The notes under the pieces are model-generated. The model was not told the origin of the DNA, ran no database searches, and worked only from the letters and a program-made list of their open reading frames with translations. Both the position numbers and the translations under genes were made by a program. DNA of 64,000 nucleotides, taken from Octopus vulgaris (lineage: Eukaryota). The stretch lies in contig OX597817.1 of assembly GCA_951406725.2 (NCBI GenBank), positions 126,170,001 through 126,234,000 on the forward strand, in the 5' to 3' direction. Positions 19,216 to 59,885 of this stretch are shown piece after piece. How positions within the stretch are numbered: position 1 is the stretch's first letter; each line of letters begins with the position of its first letter.

Positions 19216-20490
19216 CGAGGGGCGTTCAATAAGTAATGCCCCTGACACACTTCCCATAGCAGTAGAGCAACGAAACTTGGCACAGTTATTAGTCATTTTC
19301 TACATAGGAACCAACCAGAGTTACGCATTTCTCCCATCGTTTGATGCGGCTCTGGAGACCGTTTTTGTAGAAGAACCCAGCTTGGTCCTCCAACCTCAAC
19401 GTAACTTCAGAAATCAAGGCTGCATCATCTGGGAAACGCCTTTCCTTTCAAAAACAACTTCATGATTGGGAAGAGGTGAAAATCAGAGGGTGCAAGGTCA
19501 GGAAAGTAGGGGGGATGGGGAGGAGTTCATAGTCATACGCCTGTGCTTCTGATCTGGCGACAAGCGAGTTGTGGACCGGAGCGTTGTCCTGCAGGAGGAG
19601 GATGCTTTGCTGATCTTGCCCCGCCTCTTGATTTTGATAACTTCTCTTAATTTCCTCAAAAGTGAAGCATAATAGGCTCCTGCAATTGTGGTACCCTTTG
19701 CCAGGAAATCTGTCATCACTACTCCGTCCTGGTCCCAGAAGTCTGTGAGCATGACCTTGCCAGCGGAGGGCTGCACCCTTGCCTTCTTTGGAGGGGGTGA
19801 GTCACGGTGCTTCCACTGCATTGACTGGGATTTGGTCTCTGGATCATCGTGATGGACCCAGGTTTCATCCTGTGTAATTTTGACTCATCTTCTTGGCACA
19901 TCTCCAAATTCACCCTCGAGCACTCGACGCGTTCTTGCTTCCGGAAAGGCGTGAGCAACCTGGGAATCCATCTGGCAGACACCTTTTGCATATGCAAATG
20001 GTCATGAATGATAGTTTCAACAGACCCGGTACTCATCTTGACCTCATGGGCTATTTGGCGAATAATTATGCGTCGATCTTCCAAAATGGCAGCCTCAACT
20101 TAACGGACAGATGCCTCATCAATGGCAGAAGGGGGCGACCAGATCTGGGAGCTGTTTCCACAGAGTTCTGACCATGTTTGAATTCACGATGCCAGCGTTT
20201 TACAAGGTCATATGATGGGGCATCATCACCATAAGTTACTTTCATTTCATCAAAAGTCTCCCGTTGTGTGCGTCCTTTCAAATACAAAAACCGGATCACT
20301 GCTCGACACTCAACAGGCTCCATTTCACACTTGACTCAGTTCAAACACCTGTAAATCAGAAAGCACAAATAGTTCAGAGCTGTAATTTGCCACTTAATCT
20401 ATAGAACTATGAATAATTGCACATGCAAAATTTCAGCTAGATCAAACAAATGCAAGTGGGTCAGAGGCATTACTTATTGAACATCCCTCG
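19216..20490 (-). mobile_element. Full-length mariner (DD34D) transposon, 1275 bp
   Basis: TIRs CGAGGGGCGTTCAATAAGTAATGCCCCTGAC / GTCAGAGGCATTACTTATTGAACATCCCTCG, flanked by TA at 19214-15 and 20491-92. Confidence 0.95.
19289..20323 (-). pseudogene. Frameshifted mariner transposase
   Basis: MEPVECRAVIRFLYLKG HTH start, WIPRLL, DETWVHH, LLQDNAPVH and PYFPDLAPSDFHLFP motifs spread over several frames (ORFs 20066-20323, 19719-20084, 19498-19821). Confidence 0.92.
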
Positions 20491-27789: not shown

Positions 27790-28003
27790 AAGAAAGAAAG
27801 AAAGAGGTAATTGTGTCAATAAGACACAAAGGTGTCAGGCAATGCTGAGTAAGTGCTATCGACAGACTATAGTTAAGCTCCAGGTGATTATGCGAATGAG
27901 GAGTCCAATGTAGGTCATATATCAGCACGTGTATATATGAAAACACTTTTTAGAATGAGATAAAAATCCATGGCTGTGAAAGATTTTAGAGCATTTATAA
28001 ATA

Positions 28004-28053
28004 GGTCTTACATCTGTTTCTGGGATATTTTATATATCCCTTCATCGGTGACC
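28004..28053 (-). ncRNA. Minimal type I hammerhead-ribozyme-like motif
   Basis: Minus strand reads GGTCA-CCGATGA-A-GGGATAT-ATAAA-ATATCCC-A-GAAA-CAGATG-TA-AGACC: stem I GGTC/GACC, 7-bp stem II, GUA triplet; core is CCGAUGA rather than CUGAUGA. Confidence 0.7.
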
Positions 28054-28391
28054 GTGTGGGGAAAATCGTTAAGCAATAGTTATTTTAGATAAGATATGAA
28101 ATTGAGAGTAAAGTGGAGGAATGACAATAGACGTGAGATATGCAGGGATATTGCATCAGTAGATCTATTATTTAGGCTGAATGGTATACGTATAAGATTC
28201 CAGTGCCTTGTAAGCTCCAGTATCATTTAAAATTGGTCATTCCAAGTATAGAGTTTGTACACGGTATTATAGAATCAAGGGTTTTACTTTAAATAAAACC
28301 CTGCGTAACTCACGTCTATTTTCATTCCTCCACTTCACTCACCATTCCATATCTTATCTAAAATAAGTATTGCTTAACCATTTTCTCACAC

Positions 28392-28441
28392 CATCTCCGA
28401 TGACGGGATATATAAAATATCCTGGAAACATCTGTAATACC
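28392..28441 (+). ncRNA. Minimal hammerhead-like motif (mirror copy, decayed stem I)
   Basis: CATCT-CCGATGA-C-GGGATAT-ATAAA-ATATCCT-G-GAAA-CATCTG-TA-ATACC. Confidence 0.6.
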
Positions 28442-30316
28442 TTCTATTTATAAATGTTTTATAATCTTTCATAGCCTTGGATTTTTATCTCATTCTAAAC
28501 ATTTATGTACATATATATAGTTCAAAACATAGGAATGAACACATGCAAAAACAGAACACGAAATACGATTATAACGGCATTTTCGCAAAAGGAACCAGAA
28601 GAAATTGAAATATTGAGTGGGAGAGATTTGGCAATGTTGTTAGACAACAACATATTTCTAGTGTGACAAGAGAAAATCTCACTCTGAGGAATTTCAACTT
28701 ATTTACTAGCTTAGTCACCAGCGTGAAAAATATAAAATGAACACGTAAACACTATTTCTGTGTTTCAAGTAATTTCACCTCTAAGCAGGAATTGAAATTT
28801 AAACAATTTCAAAATATTTGAGGTTGAATAATTTGCGTTGAGAAAAATTACTCAATAAATGACTAAGAGAGAATAACAGAAATTCAGTAAATAACTAAAA
28901 GAGAATAACAGAAAATGTTCCGTATATCAGATAACTGTTCCAAATATTCGTTCATGCTTTCGATCTGCTTAAACTTTCACAGCAAAGCATTGTCGAAGCG
29001 ATGTCATCTAAAGATTAGTAAATTTCATTGACTTGCCAAATGATGAAATAATGCATTAAAAAGTTTTCAGAAGTTTCCTCATGCCTAATTTGTAATTTTA
29101 GCTCATGATCCTAACGTGTTGCAGCGATGTAATTTTTTAATGAGTCAAAATTCGCATCATTGCATGAAGAAAATTAGTTATAGTATAGATTTGCAGTGCG
29201 CCGGTTGGGCAAGAGCAATGAATTCTTCTGTCTTACATACATATTAATGAGTCAACCCCAATCTCGTATAAAATATATCTTCACATAATTTGAAATCCCT
29301 GTGTGATTCCAATATGTAATTTAACAGCAGTTATATTTCAGATTATCGGTTGGCGCACATTTAATTTATGTCGATGAATGCCGACTTTGTTGTTAGCCTC
29401 TCTCCAAACTACATACTCTCTTGTAAATTTATTGGTTTATTCATTAGTAGTGGCTTGCACAGAGACACCATTTAAATATTTTCATCGTTCATATTAAATC
29501 TAGTAATTATCAGCGACTGGAACATATTGTAACGTTTGACAAATCTTTCAAACATACGCTCAAAGCAACTGAACCGTATAACCTGGAAATAAAACATCTG
29601 AAGCGCATACAGATACAAAAAATGTTCGACATGTTTGTACTCAAATACAGACACAACCACACGTCCACATGCAACACGCACTCAAAAGCATGTCTGCATA
29701 GGTTCTATCAATCATGCACTAATTAGCAATATTTGCCGTAAAGGAAACGTCTCAAAAGTCAATTTCTAAAATCAGAATTCGTACTAAGCCATTGCGTTGT
29801 TGCAAGAAAACTTTGGAATAGAATGTCTGTGACTATCGACGTCTTGTTTTTAAACATTATATTTTATATATAAGTTTGCTGATAATTAATTGCGAATAAT
29901 TGTAAGGTAGGCATACATCAAAGCAAATATGTTTATTATTTCCTATAACACTACTAAATTTCGCCTTGCAAATTTAAGATATCAAAGAAGGAAAACAATA
30001 ATATTAGATCTCTTTCAAATCATTTGGTCTTTCCCAGATTTACTCTAGCCAAAGTAACATATCATACGGTCGGATAATATGAAATCGATATATTCTACCA
30101 ATATTAATTTACACGACAGCGGACGATGTTGCGGCTACAGCATATGAAGCTATAAACTCTATGTTATGAATCTATCACATATATTTGAATGAAAACATAA
30201 AAGTGCAGCATACTTAAGCAAATACATTCCACACAAATTACGTAGATTGACACCCGGACAGAAGACATATACGTGTATTTGTATTTGTGTCTGTGTGATA
30301 TATATATATATATTAT

Positions 30317-30607: not shown

Positions 30608-31053
30608 ATATAATTAGTGAATGGAACAAATAGAGCTGAACGAAGATTCTACAGAATTCCTTTTATTACATTCTACACATGTTTCAAAGGCCACAAATTT
30701 CCAAATTCTGATTGAATAAAGATACCATATTGCAGCTTTCTCTTCAGGAAAATCCAGGAATTACGATGTCCAAACAAAACAAAGGCGCAGCAAGCAACTC
30801 GAACAAGAACGCTCCCTAGGAGCCCATGAAGTGGGGTAAACTGTTTCTCAATGTCTTGTTCGAGTTGCTTGCTGCGCCTTTGTTTTGTTTGGACAACGTA
30901 ATTCCTGGATTTTCCTGAGAGAAGGCTGCAATATGGTATCCTTATTCAATCAGAATTTGGAAATTTGTGGCCTTTGAAACATGTGTAGAATGTAATAAAA
31001 GGAATTCTGTAGAATCTTCGTTCAGCTCCATTTCTTCCATTCACTAATTATAT
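30608..31053. mobile_element. Fold-back element 2: ~200-bp near-perfect inverted arms
   Basis: 30608-30808 vs 30854-31053, 45-bp spacer, runs into (TA)n. Outer end GAGCTGAACGA...CAGAATT..TTTATT is homologous to the element at 38822. Confidence 0.92.
30655..30762 (-). ncRNA. Type I hammerhead-like motif (mirror copy at 30900-31006 on +)
   Basis: Minus strand: AATTCCTGGATTTTC-CTGAAGA-GAAAGCTGCAA...TTGTGGCCTTT-GAAA-CATGTG-TA-GAATGT..AGGAATT. The + copy lacks one core base (CTGAGA). Confidence 0.68.
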
Positions 31054-31071
31054 ATATATATATATATATAT

Positions 31072-31376
31072 GAGGCGCAATGGCCCAGTTGTTAGGGCAG
31101 CGGAGTCGCGGTCGTAGGATCGTGGTTTCGATTCCCAGACCGGGCGTTGTGAGTGTTTATTGAGCGAAAACTCCTAAAGCTCCACGAGGCTCTGGCAGGG
31201 GGTGGTGGCGATCCCTGCTGTACTCTTTCGCCACAACTTTCTCTCACGCTTTCTTCTGTCGGCCTGCTCGCTTAGCCAGCGGGGTGGCGTCACTTGAAGG
31301 CTAAAACAATTCAAAGCGCACTGTGACCAGCAATGTGTAACAACATCTGATAGCTTGGTCGGTCACAGTGATCACG

Positions 31377-33435: not shown

Positions 33436-34417
33436 TATAAGAAAAAGGGACAGGCAAAACAGGTTGCTTGACCGCATACCGAAAAAATAGAAATAGCAGT
33501 CAAGAATGCTTATTTCTATCAAAGTTGGACTCCGGGCATGACAGACCCTGTAATTCACATATGCAAAACAGAAGGAATAGATAACGAATACGAAGTCTGG
33601 CGGTTATCTGTGAACATCATGTTTCTGGATTATAAACATATTGAATATATATTCCATATATTTTTGATATATATTTCATATACATTGCAAATATATTTCA
33701 CATCCTTCTTCAGCACAGCTTTCCATTGAAAAAGATTTATCATAGATTTATCAAATGCTACGTACCTCAAACCTTCTGACCATGCGACATCAAAATATTT
33801 GAAGAAAGTGAGCAAAGGCTAAAACTACATAGACGTTTGAATTCATAAATCTTCCCTCCAAAATTTTGCCATGCGCATTACAGTTAGGTTGTCAAAGGGA
33901 GTGAAAAATCCAAATAGTAATATAATGATAAGAGTAAATAATTTCTATAAAGGCTTTTAAAAAAACCCAATTATTTACTGGTAGAATTCGGTATGTAAAT
34001 ATAGCCGATTACCGACAGGAACTTCTGTAAAGTTCAGTATATATATTGTATATAAGAAAAAGGGACAGGCAAAAATATATGGAATATATATTCAATATGT
34101 TTATAATCCAGAAACATGATGTTCACAGATAACCGCCAGACTTCGTATTCGTTATCTATTCCTTCTGTTTTGCATATGTGAATTACAGGGTCTGTCATGC
34201 CCGAGTCCAACTTTGATAGAAATAAGCATTCTTGACTGCTATTTCTATTTTTTCGTATGCGGTCAAGCAACCTGTTTTGCCTGTCCTTTTTCTTATATAC
34301 AATATATATACTGAACTTTACAGAAGTTCCTGCCGGTAATCGGCTATATTACATACCGAATTCTACCAGTAAATAATTGGGGTTTTTTAAAAGCCTTTAT
34401 AGAAATTATTTACTCTT

Positions 34418-34422
<5 letters not shown>
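33436..34422. mobile_element. Fold-back element 3: permuted double inversion between (TA)n tracts
   Basis: A (33436-33666) pairs with A' (34070-34299); B (33925-34074) pairs with B' (34275-34422); ~24-bp direct repeat TATAAGAAAAAGGGACAGGCAAAA at ~33436 and ~34051. Confidence 0.9.
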
Positions 34423-38371: not shown

Positions 38372-38821
38372 GCATACACATACATACATACATACATACA
38401 CGTACAAAAAAGATATTACACGCAGACATAAATATAAATGAATCCCTGAATGATAATCACGTGTATTACGTTACTTTTGTAACGTATATGCTAAGTATGC
38501 CATTTTCCCATCACCAACGACACTGATCAAAAATGAGTTAAATGGTATTTGATCAATCAACACAATTATTTGCATCTGAATTTAAGTGGTAGTGCCGTAA
38601 CAATCTACAGCTGTATTAGCCTCAGACATATCTTCAGGCAAAATCAATGTGTCATATTGTGTGCTTGCGCGTCTATTATGTATATGACAATGATGTATAT
38701 CTTGTATTAAATGTTCATTCCAACCGACTGTCTTTGGTAAGTTTCTATTGATATCCTCTCCCGATAAACAATATATATATATATATATATATAATTGTTT
38801 CAAAAATATAAAGATATGCAG

Positions 38822-39194
38822 GAATGGAGCTGAACGACGAATTAGCAGAATTTCTTTATTTTCGACATATGTTTCGAAGGATGCATATTCCTAATTGCGA
38901 AGGAATAAGGTGTACATTATGCCGCTTTCATCAGGAAAAGCAAGGAACTTATGTCAACATCAAAATGCACAAAAAACTTTTAGATGATTGCTCACATGGA
39001 GCCCATCGCTATAGGCTCCGTGTGAGCAATCATCAAAAAGTTTTTGTGCATTTTGATGTTGACATAAGTTCCTTGATTTTCCTGATGAAAGCGGCATAAT
39101 GTACTCCTTATTCCTTCGCAATTAGGAATATGCACCCTTCGAAACACATGTCGAAAATAAAGAAATTTTGCTAATTCGTCGTTCGGCTCCATTC
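38822..39194. mobile_element. Fold-back element 4: ~182-bp arms around a 10-nt loop
   Basis: 38822-39003 vs 39014-39194, about 9 differences by eye; the mirror ORFs 38824-39099 and 38992-39192 in the track reflect this palindrome. Confidence 0.95.
39066..39168 (+). ncRNA. Type I hammerhead ribozyme motif (mirror copy at 38848-38950 on -)
   Basis: ATTTTC-CTGATGA(39082-88)-AAGCGGCATA...TATGCACCCTTC-GAAA(39141-44)-CACATG-TC-GAAAAT. Perfect 6-bp stem I with imperfect extension, GUC triplet, predicted cut after 39152; the minus copy has palindromic CATATG in stem III. Confidence 0.78.
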
Positions 39195-39212
39195 TTTCAT
39201 ATATTTATATTT

Positions 39213-39386
39213 CAGCAGGGATCCCTGCTGTACTCTTTCACCACTCTTTCTTCCACTCTTTCTTCTGTTGGCCTGCTCGCTTAGCCAGCGGGTTGGCGTC
39301 ATTCGAATGCTAAAACAATGCGAACGCATTGTGACCAGTGATGTGTAACTACATCTGATGCACTGGTCGGTCACGTGATCACGTGA
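39213..39386 (+). mobile_element. SINE family C, 5'-truncated
   Basis: Matches 31210-31380 (GATCCCTGCTGTACTCTTTC...GGCCTGCTCGCTTAGCCAGCGGG...GGTCGGTCAC). Confidence 0.85.
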
Positions 39387-40344: not shown

Positions 40345-41930
40345 TGTCAGAACAATATTACCGGGTTAATTCAAATGCTGGATACTGCAACTTGGACTGT
40401 ACCCAAGGATAATGTGGTCTTTGCAAATGTACGAAGTAGCCTGGTGTAGAGTAGAAAGGATGGAACAAATATGTTGTGTGTTTATCAGAAAATGGCTTGT
40501 TCTTCCAAAACCACTGAATACAACTGCACTATATGGAAAACCCGAGCTGCAACTACCAAGGGCATCGATTGAATATAAGGCAAGGAAAGCAAGAACAGTA
40601 ATGATGCTAATGTATTCGAAAGATCGGAACATCCGAGAAAACCCTCCAAAGGTACGAACAGAGGGAGGAATGGAATGCGGAAGAAGCAATAAACAGCGCA
40701 ATCAGAAAGGTAATGCATGCCGATATAGACGGAGCGGCGCAAGAAGTAAGAGCCGGCCTAGGGTTTCACAATTTCAAGCCATTTTTCATAAACAGTGTAA
40801 AAGAGATGAAAGAGGCAGTGGTACAGGAAGTGAGAAAGGAGGAAGAAAGAAGGCGAAATGTACATTTGGTACAATGTAGTCAACAGGGACAGTGGCTGAG
40901 ATGGGAGGAATCCGTGGTCAGTCGCAGAATCTCATGGAAGGAACAAGCATGGACATCTTTACTGATCAAGCCTACCTTCGACGTTTTATCTTCATCGGCC
41001 AATTTAGTCCGGTAGAACATACAAATGACTGATAGATGCGGAGAGAAAGCTACTGTGAGATATGGACTGTCAAACTGCAGATATACAGATATACATGACG
41101 TCACAATCAAATCCTCGATGTCTTAAGGGAGCACTCAAGAATAAAGATCGAGGTGTATAACAGGGGAGCGTACCAAAAAATGGGAAAGTGCGGGAAGATA
41201 CATCTCCAGGAGGTAAAAGGACATAATACCAGGCCTTCAAATAAATAATACGAGGCAGACGAAAGATGGAAGGGGTAGTGGGAGCTGGCCGTGGATTTAG
41301 AATGACCGCTAATATTTCCACTCATAAAAATAACAAAAAGACCGAACTTAATCGTACAGAACACAGAACGGAAGATTAGAATTTTGCTAGAGCTGACAGT
41401 GCTATGGGAAGAGCAGATCGCTAATGCAGAACAACGGAAAGAGGAGAGGTATCTAAGTTTAATCGAAGAGCGCGGAGAACAGGGATGGATTGTCGAGCAT
41501 TACCACATGGTAGTTGTGGCTAGAGGCTTAAGTGAAAGGAAAATGGGGACGTTATTCAAAAGATTTGCATTTTCGAGCTCAGAGCTGAGAAAGCTAATGA
41601 GGATACAGGAGGCTGTCGACAAAGCCAGTTTCTATTTATGGCTGAATGGAGAAGACACAAAACCCATAACACGCCGACTGAGAAATAGCGTCGCTAGGCA
41701 AGGCTGGCTGGCACTTATGCAGCATTGCTGATTGACATGTGGACCAAGTTAGCGATCTCGTTCATTGCGCCTCCTCCTCCTGGTTCGAAGGCGTGTACCA
41801 ACAAACAGCTGGTCGGCTCTGGTTGCTGGAACTGAAACGAACATAACAGTGTTGTTGAAAGGTAGTGTTAGAGAGGGCGCGGAACAAAACTACGCGTCCT
41901 TCCCATTCATTGGACAGTTGAAGCTTATAT
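40345..41930 (+). mobile_element. 5'-truncated HERO-like (R2 superfamily) non-LTR retrotransposon with restriction-like endonuclease
   Basis: FKCWILQLGLYPRIMWSLQMYEV...IRKWL.LP..L...ALYG..LQLP, SQQGQWLRWE, FDVLSS.ANLVR, decayed CCHC, RP(N)LI and ELTVLWEE...A..RK..RY; multiple frameshifts. 3' boundary approximate. Confidence 0.85.
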
Positions 41931-46007: not shown

Positions 46008-47261
46008 GTCATAAAGTATGAAATTTATAGAAAAGAATAAACAATTACTAATATTTATAAACAAAGGCATAGTTTTATTCATCAAATTATCAACCCATAT
46101 TGTCAATACACTTTTTAGCAGTAGCTTGTCAAGTCCAGTGCGATACTGTAAAAGCTGGGCAATATAGAGTCAATAGGATCTTGGAAGGCCAGTTTTACAG
46201 CATCGTTGGAAATGAATTTTTTCCTATCAAAACGTTATCCAAATTCTGGAAGAAGTGGTAGTCAGTGGGGCGAGATCAGCTGAGTATGGTGGATGATGGA
46301 GAACTTCCAACTCCAAACCATGTAGTTTCGTCAATGTTAATTTTTCGATGTGTGGTCTGGCGATGTCTTGCAATAAAATAGGAGTGGATCCGTTGACTAA
46401 TCTTGGCGGTTTGTTTTGTAAGTTTCTGCATCATGTGTTCCAGTTGGTTGCAATATATTTCGGCCGTGACTGATAAGCCAGGTTTGATGAAATCATAATA
46501 GATTGCACTTGTGCTAGACCACCAAACACACACCATCAGCTTCTTTTGATGAATTTTGCTTTTTGGACAGTATTTTGTTGGCTCGTCTTTGTTCAACCAT
46601 TGTGCTGAACGTTTACGTTTGTTGTATTGCATCCATTTCGTATCACATGTTACAATTTGATTAAAAAATTATTTATCTTTTTGAGGAGAAAGCAGCAAAA
46701 TGCAGGCTTCCAAGCGTCGCTGTTTCTGATTTTCATTGAGTTCATGTGGAACCCACTTACCCAAATTTTCCCTTTATCTATTTGAACTACGTCAGTCAAT
46801 ATTGTTTACTTGCTAACACCAAACAACAACGATCATTCACGGGCACTTTAAAATGGATCTGACCTCGACGGTGGCCTTCCGTTCGTCATTGTCCACCTTT
46901 CTGAGGTCAAAGTTACCAGAACGAAAATTTGCAAAACAATTTGATACTGTCTGCTGTTTAATAACATTAGAACAAAATACTCCATTAATATTCCGAGCTG
47001 TCTGTGATGCTGTATTTCCAAGAAAGAACTCATATTTCGAAACTGTATGAATTTCCGACTTATCCAACTCTAAACAAAAATAGCAAAAAAAAAACCCCAT
47101 TTATAAATACTTTATAAATCGCAAAATCAGTTAGAATAAAGAAATAGATGTGTCAGCTTTCTAACAAAACAAATTATTGTCCAAACATAATAGCAGCGCA
47201 AAATGAGCAGCTAAAACATTTACGATATACCTTAGTACAAATTTCATACTTTACGACTTTA
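46004..47261 (-). mobile_element. Decayed mariner (cecropia-subfamily-like), ~1.26 kb, inserted in (TA)n
   Basis: TIRs TTAGGTCATAAAGTATGAAATT / AATTTCATACTTTACGACTTTA; transposase motifs YEF..G.TASQTARNIN.VF, WVPHEL, TCDTKW.QY.KRKRSAQWL and PYSADLAPTDYHFF. Confidence 0.92.
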
Positions 47262-47333: not shown

Positions 47334-49750
47334 CATATATATGTCATGATTCTGATTATGTACTTCCACATGTTTAGCTACGAGATAAGATAATATCACC
47401 GATCAAGTACTCTTCGGTATATGTTTGATGACAATCCACTAATGGAGTTAAAGGAACACGCTGTCAGTTTATATGTGAACGTTTCCTTCCTTGTTGACGT
47501 ACGTGTGTATCTCTTCAATTCCTTGTTTGTCAGCATACAGATGTATGTGTGCAAGTTAGATACAAAAACGGTGAATCTAAAATAAATCAAAGCGAAATTT
47601 CTTCTTTCATGTTTTATGACACTGAATTCTTTTCGTCCTCTTTTTTTATCTGGTTTCAATTATGAGCTAAAATATTTCATTAAGTATATTGCTTGAATAG
47701 TTATTTTGTGTAGTATAGATTTGCATAAATTGCCAACAAATAATACAAAGACACGGCAACTTAATATAAATACATTTGAACAAACCTATCCTTGTGTAAA
47801 AACAATTGAGATATTAACTTCCATTGTGATTTTAAAATATTTTAAAAACTCATTAATATTTATATTTTGTTTAAATTTTCAGCATTATGCTTTAATATCT
47901 TTAGTTAATTTCATATTTTATTTTAGAATATAATAACATACTTTTATTTTCATATTAGTTTTAAATAATATTTTATTTATGATTACTATCATCATTATCA
48001 TCATCATCTTCAATATTGTTATTATTATTATTGTTATTATTATTATTATTATTATCAATATTAGTATTGTTAGTACTATCAGCGTCATCTCACACCGTAA
48101 CGCATTTTTAAACTTTACAAAATGTTCTCTATCTTTTATTCTGTCACCCATAGAAGTTGTCTACTGTAACAAATGTATTATTTTAACGAGTCGTTAATAA
48201 TTTTTTCGACTAGACGGACAGAGCTTATAGATGTCATCATGAGTCATTAGTTAACACTTCAATGTTTTGATCTCTGATTATTATTCGCCGAGTCAAGTTA
48301 AAATGCATGAGTGCATACTTTAGCATCTCTTATACGGAATGGGAGTTCATATCCCACCACTGGTCATAAAAGACGGAAGAAATGAACTCAAATAAAAGAG
48401 ACTATAAGAGACACATTCTCTAAAATAGAAAGTAAACATCCTTTTGGCAGGAATAGAGAATAATCTTTTTTTCTTAAAGGCAAATGCGGAATAAATTGTT
48501 CTGTGTTTATTTATACATTTGTGAGGTATCAGGAATTACAATATTTCTTTGAAAAACCTTGTATCTTTCCGCTAGAAAGATCATTCTAGATTTGTAGATT
48601 TGTTCCAAATCATAGTTTAATCACTCTATAATTCCTATCACTATTAATGTGGAGAATGACACTTTGACAAGAACGCAGCATTTGCGACGTAGCTACCATT
48701 GGGAGCGCAAGGTTCTGATATCTCCAGTGCCTTTGTTTAGTTGTATTTTACCCGGCTGCATATAGATAGACAGATACAGACAAGATTGTACCATATACGT
48801 GCGAACTCAAAGCGTAAAGATGGAGAACAATTACTCTATCAAATTTTGTTATATTTGACAATTTATCCACAGATCGGGTTATCTTATTTCTTCTAATTTG
48901 GTAAAGGATAATGTCATATTAGCAGCAACAGGTCTTGAACTGAGAAGGGAAATACAGATATATATTTTGCGTAACGCTCTAACATTCAAATTTTACTCGA
49001 CTAAATTCAAAACGGAAGAAACATTTAGTATAATCAAAAAGATATAACTTGTTCAACGTCTTTAGATGTAGCTCCGTTCTATCTACAAAAGCGTACCTGA
49101 AGAAAAAACACAAGCATTTATCAAATAGTGGATATAATATTCTATTGAATTAACTGCTGTTGTTTTGTGTGTATAATCGTCATCATATATGATGCGCTTC
49201 GACTATACATAGTATTTGCATAGCCAAATATAAAGACAGAAATGTTCAGAAGATACTTCAAAAATTTGAATACTGGCAAGGCGACAGTTGCCTACTTGCA
49301 ACGGAGGAGTCGCTTCATAGCTTTTCCAACCACGTAAAGGTTTACGGACTAATGATTTCCTAAAAAATGTTGCAAATTTTTACAAAATCTCCAAGAAAAG
49401 CTTCTTGATATTAGCTAATATGCTATGATTACAGTCTATTAGAAACAGACTGTAATTAAAAGTTATTACACTGCTATTTTGAGCATTTCAAGCTACTGAT
49501 AAGAGAAAATCACGTCTCGAATTCTCCCATATAGAAAAATAAAGGAACAATAGGTCAATACTGAGTGAGCAAAGAGTAATGATGAGAGTCTTTCGTGTGA
49601 TTAATATGTCTCATTAGCATGGACATTCTTGTGAGACTAAGCGAAGGCATATTTGCACCTCTACAATTTACATCACATTTATCACCTTGTTAATTAATAT
49701 TTCTTGTAAACAAGGTGGTGATCTGACAGGAACGTTGCCGCTTTCGTTGT

Positions 49751-50069
49751 TTTTCAAGGTCTACGTGAGTCATTTTTGGCGGTATTTTTCAAGTTGTACG
49801 TGAGTCATTTTTGGTGGTATTTTTCAAGGTGTACGTGAGTCATTTTTGACGGTATTTTTCAGGATGAATGTGAGTCATTTTTGACGGTACTTTTCAAGGT
49901 GTACGTGAGTCATTTTTGGCGGTACTTTTCAAGGTGTACGTGAGTCATTTTTGGCGGTACTTTTCAAGGTGTACGTGAGTCATTTTTGGCGGTACTTTTC
50001 AAGGTGTACGTGAGTAATCTTTGGCGGTATATTTCAAGGTGTACGTGAGTCATTTTTGGCCGTATTTTC
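49751..50069. repeat. 35-bp minisatellite, ~9 copies
   Basis: Unit TTTTCAAGGTGTACGTGAGTCATTTTTGGCGGTA(T/C) recurs at an exact 35-bp period (C of CAAG at 49755, 49790 ... 50035) with no spacers. Confidence 0.97.
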
Positions 50070-50195
50070 ATAGCGTTAACATCATTTTGTTTTTGTATCA
50101 GTGTTTCAGACACTTTGTTAATTGTTCTTGTACTGCTTAGTAGCAATTTGTTTGTACTTCCCTTCCTGATAGAGGTGGGTCGGTTAGTGAAAAAG

Positions 50196-58335: not shown

Positions 58336-59885
58336 TCTTCTCTCACTGAACATCCGGCAGTATAGGCAAACGTTATTACACATCGATATCAAGAAAAGCA
58401 GTGTGTGTGTGGTGCGTATTTTTTTCAAGGATTCGAAAATCAGGTTGCCGATTTTCACGTATGAAGAATCAAAAGATTCAGTAATCTTTCGGCTAGCATA
58501 TAAAGTTTTTTTTGCACAACTCTTTTTTACTACGAAAATAACCTCGTAAACCAGGTCTGGTTACGCAATTTTGAAGTCATTTTCGGGCAATATTCTGATT
58601 TATTTATAATCTACGTTGCCAATTTCAATGTTTTTGGTGTAAAAAATGCAGTAATATACAAAGAGTGTTTAGTGCATTTTTGATGCACAAAACTGTATTT
58701 GTCAACGGGAAATTACAAAAACTATGTTTTTTGGATTCGTTTTCCGTGCCACACACTTCGGTTTTTTTATATTTTTCCAAAGTTTCTTCGGATTTCTATG
58801 ATTCTGATATGGAAAACATGACATTTTTATACTTTTAATTTCCCCACTTCTCAACCCAACTTCTTAATTTTTAACTTTTTCCCTATTTTTTAAAAATTCA
58901 CGTAGAAAATTCAGAGATTACAAATCTGGGGAATTCTTTGTTTTTATTTTTCTTAAAGAAACACTCAATGCCCCTTCCTCAACCTCGCCTTACCTCCCCG
59001 ATTTCAAAAGCTAAAAACTCAGAATGTTTTACTTTCGTTTGTTCCACGCATGCATAGAATTCTACTGCAATAGCAGACGTCAAAAATATCAGCCCAACAC
59101 CAGAAAACCTGACATGTTAGAAACAACAGCTAAACAACATTATTTCTGAAAAAACTTCCCCGCTTCCAAAAATGCTAAAAATGAAACATTCGAAGTTTTA
59201 TCTTTTTGAATATGGGGAGGTGATGGGTGGATGCTGGAGAAGGGGACGTGAGTGTTTGTTTAAGAAAGAGCTTTTAAAAATATTCATAGGGATCCGTGAT
59301 CTCTGTATTTTTCGACGTGGTTTACAGAAAAAATCCCAAAGACGAGGTGGGAGGAAGTAAACATTGTGAAAACGTGTTTTGGGGGCAAAATCTTAATCTC
59401 CTATAACGAAACCATAGGAACCAGAAGTAATTTTGAAACAAAAAAGGGCTGGGCGCAAATACCACCTCCGACATGATAGAAACAACAGTTTAACTGTATG
59501 ATTTCTAAAACAGATTCTTCTAAAATTTATATCGAAGATCCCTTTTTTAAATACGCTCATCACAAACACGAATTGCGAAATAAAGTGTTCGCGGAGTTTT
59601 GATCGTAACACGTACTAAACCCTTCATAACTTCTTTTATTTTTAATAATTTTCATGAATTGTTTTCGATTCTGTCTTCTGCATAACGGAATTAATACAAT
59701 TGTCCAATAAATAAATTTATTTTTTTACATATTCTACCCCTACCCACCTAATTCCAAAACTTACACTCTTATTCGATTGTGTACTTCATACTCCTCGTGT
59801 GCCGATTTTGCCCATAGGAAAGGAGCAAATAATACAATTTGAATGTAGGTTATAACACGCAGGCAACGCCGGGGTGCATTGCTAG
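58336..59885 (+). mobile_element. Probable non-autonomous Helitron
   Basis: 3' end GGCAACGCC hairpin followed by CTAG then T (59882-59886); candidate 5' A|TC at 58335-58337 (uncertain); internal degenerate inverted repeat 58899-59030 vs 59184-59319. Confidence 0.6.

Follow-up and report, generated by a model that had tools for sequence, protein, structure and literature searches.

Two copies of an abundant octopus repeat, each with a hammerhead ribozyme motif, lie head to head at positions 38804-39212 of the window, the 64,000-nucleotide stretch of Octopus vulgaris DNA that was analyzed here. We consider it likely that this locus is an inverted pseudo-LTR (pLTR) scar of a Penelope-like element (PLE), in which the ribozyme has probably been weakened by the loss of two letters. 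To judge by its letters, the motif is a genuine one of the hammerhead type; membership among the PLEs we infer from the architecture of the locus.

On the plus strand, the type I hammerhead motif occupies positions 39076-39158 and consists of stem I (39076-39081/39153-39158), the CUGAUGA part of the core (39082-39088), a 52-nt stem II region (39089-39140), GAAA (39141-39144), stem III ACACAUGU (39144-39151), and C17 (39152), after which the cut is predicted; a candidate poly(A) signal, AATAAA (39156-39161, plus strand), lies just 3' of this site. The mirror motif on the minus strand spans 38858-38940, with the core at 38934-38928, GAAA at 38875-38872, the self-complementary stem III ACAUAUGU at 38872-38865, and C17 at 38864. 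Both copies contain the complete type I core (C3-U4-G5-A6-N7-G8-A9, G12-A13-A14, A15.1-U16.1, and an NUH triplet), a stem I of 5-6 bp with an extension, and a dimer-type stem III of 3 bp with a 2-nt loop. Several features that an earlier, sequence-only reading of this DNA had reported were recovered, namely, the canonical CUGAUGA/GAAA/GUC core, a CAUAUG stem III in the minus copy (CACAUG in the plus copy), a stem II of ~50 nt, and an inner hairpin, UAUUCCU/AGGAAUA, which is present in the MFE folds of both arms as a nested 7-bp hairpin capping stem II (39109-39130, plus strand; mirror at about 38886-38907). The 6-bp stem I (AUUUUC/GAAAAU) described there exists in the plus copy, whereas that of the minus copy has 5 bp. 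For the stem III self-duplex, we obtained -7.0 kcal/mol in the minus copy vs -5.2 kcal/mol in the plus copy.

A descriptor that specified the core, stem I, and stem III, with no requirement on stem II, matched the window twice, and these matches are the two mirror copies, that is, one event; in 200 shuffles, the mean was 0.03 matches per 64 kb, with at least one match in 6 of the 200. The Rfam hammerhead models produced no match at the gathering score and were not represented among the 26 matches at E ≤ 10, a miss that is probably explained by the long stem II. The Rfam miRNA and snoRNA matches, all below their gathering scores, were discarded as merely reflecting the hairpin. Taken in isolation, the hammerhead regions fold no better than shuffled sequences (z of -0.01 and -1.07). 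A candidate pseudoknot connects the stem II bulge (39098-39104) with an upstream segment (39049-39055), with 7 of 7 pairs here and 5 of 7 in a second, related palindrome of the window (counted by hand); the pseudoknot-related positions 38915 and 38964 vary in contigs from DNA sequencing runs without listed changes in their partners.

The sequence-only reading had ranked this motif as the best preserved and its core as intact, an assessment that does not hold: in both arms, two letters that the rest of the repeat family carries directly after A9 of CUGAUGA are absent (39088-39089, plus strand; mirror 38927/38928). The loss removes G10.1 and leaves an A-C apposition. The A-C closure of stem II noted in that reading is thus present in both arms, but it stems from a copy-specific deletion and marks damage rather than a well-preserved ribozyme: at the 10.1-11.1 position, which is usually a G-C pair, the family majority has G10.1-C11.1 and the second palindrome has G-U. 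In the catalytic register, the window copy forms 6 of the 12 stem II pairs, with the A-C at the base; its best register forms 9 of 12, starts at G8, and uses G8-A9 of the core. Because stem II pairs well only by recruiting these two core nucleotides, cleavage by the window copy is predicted to be very weak, and the copy is probably a weakened ribozyme.

The family was delineated using contigs from 4 of the 24 listed sequencing runs, namely, the DNA runs X1, X2, and X5 and a run guessed to be RNA (X9), that were aligned on the unique flank and the left arm. Rare variants are dropped from such contigs, and none spans the locus, so that the palindrome and the deletion lack an independent sample. 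The summed arm depth peaks at 691,874, 835,949, and 76,616 in X1, X2, and X5, respectively, compared with unique-flank depths of 32.8, 18.9, and 7.07, which suggests a family of ~10^4 arms, the depth ratio being a rough measure rather than a copy number. Where contigs span the site, the two letters are inserted behind 38927 in 99% or more of the depth (31,315 of 31,369.5, 21,613.5 of 21,812.2, and 3,556.1 of 3,576.5 in the same order); relative to the wider depth column, the fractions are 43%, 48%, and 65%, and the loose ends of the contigs clipped there hold both letters. Both arms also depart from the family at 38845, 38853, and 38881. The A>C difference at 38881, present at 99.7% or more, restores pair 10.6-11.6, and with the letters that the family has at 38845 and 38853, the stem I extension regains pairs. 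In the family majority, stem II opens with G10.1-C11.1 and follows a 12-bp register with 10 of 12 positions paired (assigned by hand from unphased letters). The paired positions of the nested hairpin are not listed as variable in the DNA runs, and its loop position 38897 shows three alleles. Within the core, the three DNA runs show no variant that reaches 5%; the family consensus keeps the core, the absence of which, according to the sequence-only reading, would speak against a ribozyme. CAUAUG is the majority form of stem III in the family, and therefore CACAUG in the plus arm is a mutation.

The window copy might nevertheless still be an active ribozyme that tolerates the A-C pair and the shifted stem II and cleaves as a dimer, although we regard this as unlikely. 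All core nucleotides are present, stem III of the minus copy is fully self-complementary, and some natural hammerheads tolerate a stem II with a weak or mismatched base; variants with a U-U mismatch at 10.1-11.1 or with a 1-bp stem II can be active according to PMC3088659, so that some residual activity of the window copy is possible. Against this stands, besides the register that consumes G8-A9, the hammerhead-compatible fold lying 4.5 and 9.4 kcal/mol above the MFE, with ensemble shares of about 4e-4 and 4e-8; these values come from a monomer model in which the intact-register arms of the second palindrome also reach only ~1e-5 and hence are weak evidence. Among the 47 family contigs in the RNA-guess run, none is at 99% identity or above and none extends over the flank, which is not evidence of silence. 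Likewise, no RNA run is recorded as containing the sequence, which says nothing about expression. Finally, the whole palindrome folds at -311 kcal/mol with 192 pairs, and RNA reading through both arms would form a single 192-bp hairpin that hides both ribozyme motifs, and would act as a double-stranded substrate and not as a ribozyme; in this model, the ribozyme fold would be accessible only to RNA that starts near the join. The two hammerhead copies, being on opposite strands, allow no dimerization in cis.

The inverted repeat consists of arms at 38804-38981 and 39035-39212, and the palindrome is 93% self-complementary over 410 columns, in agreement with its earlier description as near-perfect. 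Within 38822-39194, the arms are separated by 8 substitutions and a single indel, matching the roughly nine differences counted in the sequence-only reading, and by 2 further positions at the join; over the full arms, 14 of 205 columns differ. The left arm (38804-39006, minus strand) is a 5'-truncated repeat unit, a putative PLE pLTR, with its sense directed outward (leftward); the right arm (39005-39212, plus strand) is a second copy, with its sense outward (rightward) and its right end lost at the junction with a SINE fragment. The two are joined head to head without a spacer at 39005-39010, as located by comparing the palindrome center with the loose-end consensuses behind 39006 and 39013. 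Family contigs cover the left arm to about 39006-39013 and then continue with other letters; past 39006, the family letters match the start of the right arm and not the mirror of the left arm, so that the join is a staggered inverted one rather than a perfect fold-back. The arm starts appear to lie ~6 nt apart in the unit and to share ~2 nt, which would represent microhomology. In X9, a contig end behind 39006 belongs to a different inverted join of the same family.

Farther out, the loose ends of the copies vary before 38822-38823, and upstream of the unit the copies have 7 nt in common and then soon diverge. We dropped the possibility that a TATA-defined transcription start sets the beginning of the arms in view of a misfit in spacing and an upstream consensus agreement of only 0.65-0.69. 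Beside the left end lies a (TA)n microsatellite (38772-38793), the likely insertion target. The right arm is abutted by the 3' part of a SINE-like repeat (39220-39382, plus strand; 86% like 31210-31375); ARAGORN found no tRNA gene. The 95-aa and 70-aa stop-to-stop frames of the arms have no Pfam match.

An inverted, 5'-truncated copy is a frequent part of PLE insertions, which favor (TA)n (PMC8557442), and head-to-head joins with overlap are reported in Adineta (PMC3846280). The locus shows the same combination, that is, pLTR-like, hammerhead-bearing units with a head-to-head, 5'-truncated copy. A (TA)n tract adjoins the left end of this palindrome and the right end of the second one, a weak sign given that such tracts are common in the window, which is AT-rich (~33% GC) and contains many (TA)n and (CA)n tracts, in keeping with repeat-rich animal DNA. 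Neither of the protein domains that characterize EN+ PLEs, a telomerase-like RT and a GIY-YIG endonuclease, was detected in the 150 longest of the 205 filtered ORFs of the window, and the flagged copy contains neither. At the locus, where the right end is cut by the SINE fragment, we could define neither a target-site duplication nor a clear example of the 30-40 bp tail that such elements have at one end. Of the 6 motifs taken from the window, none had a match in an animal PLE consensus of the PMC8557442 supplement; a single 10-mer match, in the green-algal Chlamys file, is due to chance.

Under the PLE reading, a PLE reverse transcriptase-endonuclease, provided in trans, would nick AT-rich DNA where a (TA)n tract lies and copy one pLTR RNA twice, each time in truncated form, with the two copies meeting head to head; purified PLE protein is described as cutting and extending both strands of AT-rich DNA and as assisting its hammerhead (PMC11167929). 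The two arms share four departures from the family majority, which implies one template or later homogenization. The template RNA was probably already devoid of the two letters before both arms were written, the alternative being later conversion between the arms; in vitro, RNA with a dead hammerhead is still inserted by the PLE protein (PMC11167929). The family hammerhead itself would cut after the NUH triplet as a dimer that pairs via the self-complementary stem III; the reaction would be slow and might depend on protein assistance. Because the sequence upstream differs among the copies, a short non-autonomous unit fits as well as a truncated long element.

Such a unit could be a retrozyme- or SINE-like element of ~200-250 nt that moves via its own, possibly circular, RNA, depends on PLE enzymes, and was never attached to an ORF, an account that overlaps with the PLE reading in mechanism and that we consider rather improbable. 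Its size falls within the retrozyme range, the upstream flanks of the family diverge as described above, animal retrozymes are derived from PLE pLTRs according to 10.64898/2026.07.22.740005, and the 47 family contigs were found in the RNA-guess run. Non-LTR retrozymes resemble the octopus unit in being short, non-coding repeats with type I hammerheads and in their relationship to PLE pLTRs (PMC7229834; 10.64898/2026.07.22.740005). In contrast to the octopus unit, which is head to head with a long stem II, they form head-to-tail arrays and have a short, canonical 4-bp helix II and loop 1-loop 2 contacts. At the flagged locus, the units are not in head-to-tail tandem, all three hammerhead repeats in the window are arranged head to head, and no go-back joint is listed among the family contigs.

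The other two of these repeats bear on the PLE reading as well. The second palindrome (30613-31048), also head to head, belongs to a related subfamily that is 72-73% like the first over about 135 nt. It has a CUGAAGA core on the left, a right core that is 1 nt short, a GUA triplet, and a 55-nt stem II with 10-11 of 12 pairs in the catalytic register; its left arm extends past its partner into letters that also occur in an X9 loose end. The third one (27932-28517) is an older head-to-head palindrome of another family, with 76% self-identity, and each of its arms contains a decayed minimal hammerhead (cores at 28397 on the plus strand and 28048 on the minus strand), in which U4 is replaced by C, an extra base follows A9, stem II has 7 bp, and the triplet is UA. 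The presence of three hammerhead palindromes within 64 kb points to a common insertion mechanism.

A SINE-like repeat is located to the right of both related palindromes in the same orientation, in its entirety at 31070-31375 and as the 3' part at 39220-39382 (86% alike), reflecting either shared (TA)n targeting or chance. The window includes additional repeats. A young tandem-plus-inverted repeat at 33440-34420, with parts 97-98% identical, lies beside (TA)n in a PLE-like layout and contains no clear hammerhead and no meaningful Pfam match. A weak inverted pair (72%, 90 nt) at 58949-59267 shows no hammerhead. Broken copies of a mariner (Mos1-type) transposase, with Transposase_1 and HTH_48 in separate frames, were identified at 19501-20335 and 46279-47100, both on the minus strand, and a 35-bp minisatellite with copies 76-89% alike occupies 49716-50138. 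The broken coding fragments at 40370-41731 and 35596-36385/39765-40175, presumably LINE-like judging by eye, have no Pfam match at E ≤ 0.01.

The palindrome is very unlikely to be a MITE or a fold-back DNA transposon in which the hammerhead look is a passenger or chance. It is short and non-coding, with long inverted arms, TA-rich ends, and a high copy number, and mariner fragments are present in the window; however, fixed terminal inverted repeats with a constant TSD were not found, the outer ends differing among the copies and between the two related palindromes, and the joins differ between copies as well. Moreover, the core, the stem II pairing, and the palindromic stem III are kept between subfamilies that are only 72% alike, and a different family shows the same layout. 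An assembly fold-back artefact, in favor of which one can note that no independent contig crosses the locus, is highly implausible, as the sequence-only reading had already argued in rejecting a simple assembly mirror: the arm differences are 8 substitutions vs 1 indel, the join is staggered with each side matching the family sequence, and the other two palindromes of the window carry arms that differ in age (overall self-identity of 90% and 76%).

The locus itself, then, is best regarded as a decayed transposon scar, and the family is of modest interest, as a high-copy candidate ribozyme that goes undetected by Rfam. Its modestly new feature is a stem II of ~54 nt, which exceeds that of the published animal PLE hammerheads and is equalled in a spike-moss PLE. 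In the accessible literature on octopus hammerheads, cephalopod Penelope hammerheads, and long stem II, the family is not described, and Repbase or Dfam may already hold it; the word "ribozyme" is absent from the main text of the Octopus vulgaris repeat paper (PMC13282606). Metagenome searches yielded 0 matches to a first pattern and 11 loci for a second one, 0 of the 11 being homologous (the best was a 16-nt match, E of 0.008). An unrelated metagenome contig (L007:415-880) contains a ~120-bp tandem repeat with a minimal hammerhead-like core.

Speculatively, and with doubts on our part, the family could represent an undescribed type of animal hammerhead, with ~10^4 copies, in which the conserved 54-nt stem II domain, composed of a 12-bp helix, an internal bulge, and the nested hairpin, either docks on the extended stem I or provides a binding site for the PLE protein and makes the ribozyme much faster or protein-switched. 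If so, neither Rfam nor standard descriptors would pick up such long-stem hammerheads, which may be hidden in PLE families scored as hammerhead-less. The role of the hammerhead in PLEs is considered open (PMC8557442, discussion), and its cleavage is dispensable in vitro (PMC11167929); at this locus, a template without G10.1 was seemingly mobilized anyway, as would be expected if cleavage is dispensable in cis. For the study of what a long stem II does, the family provides a natural series that includes the intact majority, the window deletion, and core-deleted and decayed copies. Thousands of such palindromes might also supply editing or silencing pathways with long double-stranded RNA.

Among the known hammerhead systems, the closest layout is that of the type I hammerheads in the pLTRs of Hydra-clade PLEs, such as Penelope-1_SK and Penelope-1_NV (PMC8557442, File S2). 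The shared features include CUGANGA followed directly by G10.1-C11.1, a palindromic stem III of 3-4 bp, a GUC or GUA triplet, (TA)n targets, and inverted 5'-truncated copies (PMC8557442). Unlike these elements, the octopus unit has no linked ORF, and its stem II, which measures 54-55 nt and includes a nested hairpin, has about twice the length of theirs (~12-26 nt including the loop). Compared by eye with the Hydra-1_Obim motif row and with the 3' ends of Naiad_Obim and Naiad_Ovul, the unit shows no match. Craig et al. (PMC8557442) reported long-spaced half cores in eight Naiads; a Naiad link was rejected after inspection of the Naiad_Ovul entry (HHR_half_core), in which GAAA precedes CUGAUGA at the 3' end and no likeness is seen by eye. 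In both Naiad_Obim and Naiad_Ovul, the 3' ends given in the supplement of that work have GAAA upstream of CUGAUGA, that is, by eye, a permuted (type II-like) order.

Long stem II loops in PLE hammerheads are found in the spike-moss elements PLE-X1_sMoe and PLE-X1_sTam (PMC8557442, File S2). With 9+34+9 = 52 nt, stem II of PLE-X1_sMoe equals that of the window copy in size, the comparison being one of size and not of sequence. These PLEs differ in being plant, EN-less, and rDNA-targeted, with no palindromic (TA)n insertions described for them in the available sections of PMC8557442. In most metazoan min-HHRs, A9 is followed by an unpaired nucleotide, and the helix II loop measures 3-9 nt (PMC4209133). 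The flagged family differs in both respects; the extra nucleotide is absent from this family and often absent from Hydra-clade PLEs (PMC8557442). The third palindrome (27932-28517) fits the min-HHR type, whereas the flagged family does not. What this family has in common with the min-HHRs, as these are described in PMC4209133, is a large helix II with the conserved G10.1-C11.1, a palindromic helix III that requires a dimer, in which form the min-HHRs show low activity, thousands of dispersed copies, and dual motifs on opposite strands, 100-700 bp apart.
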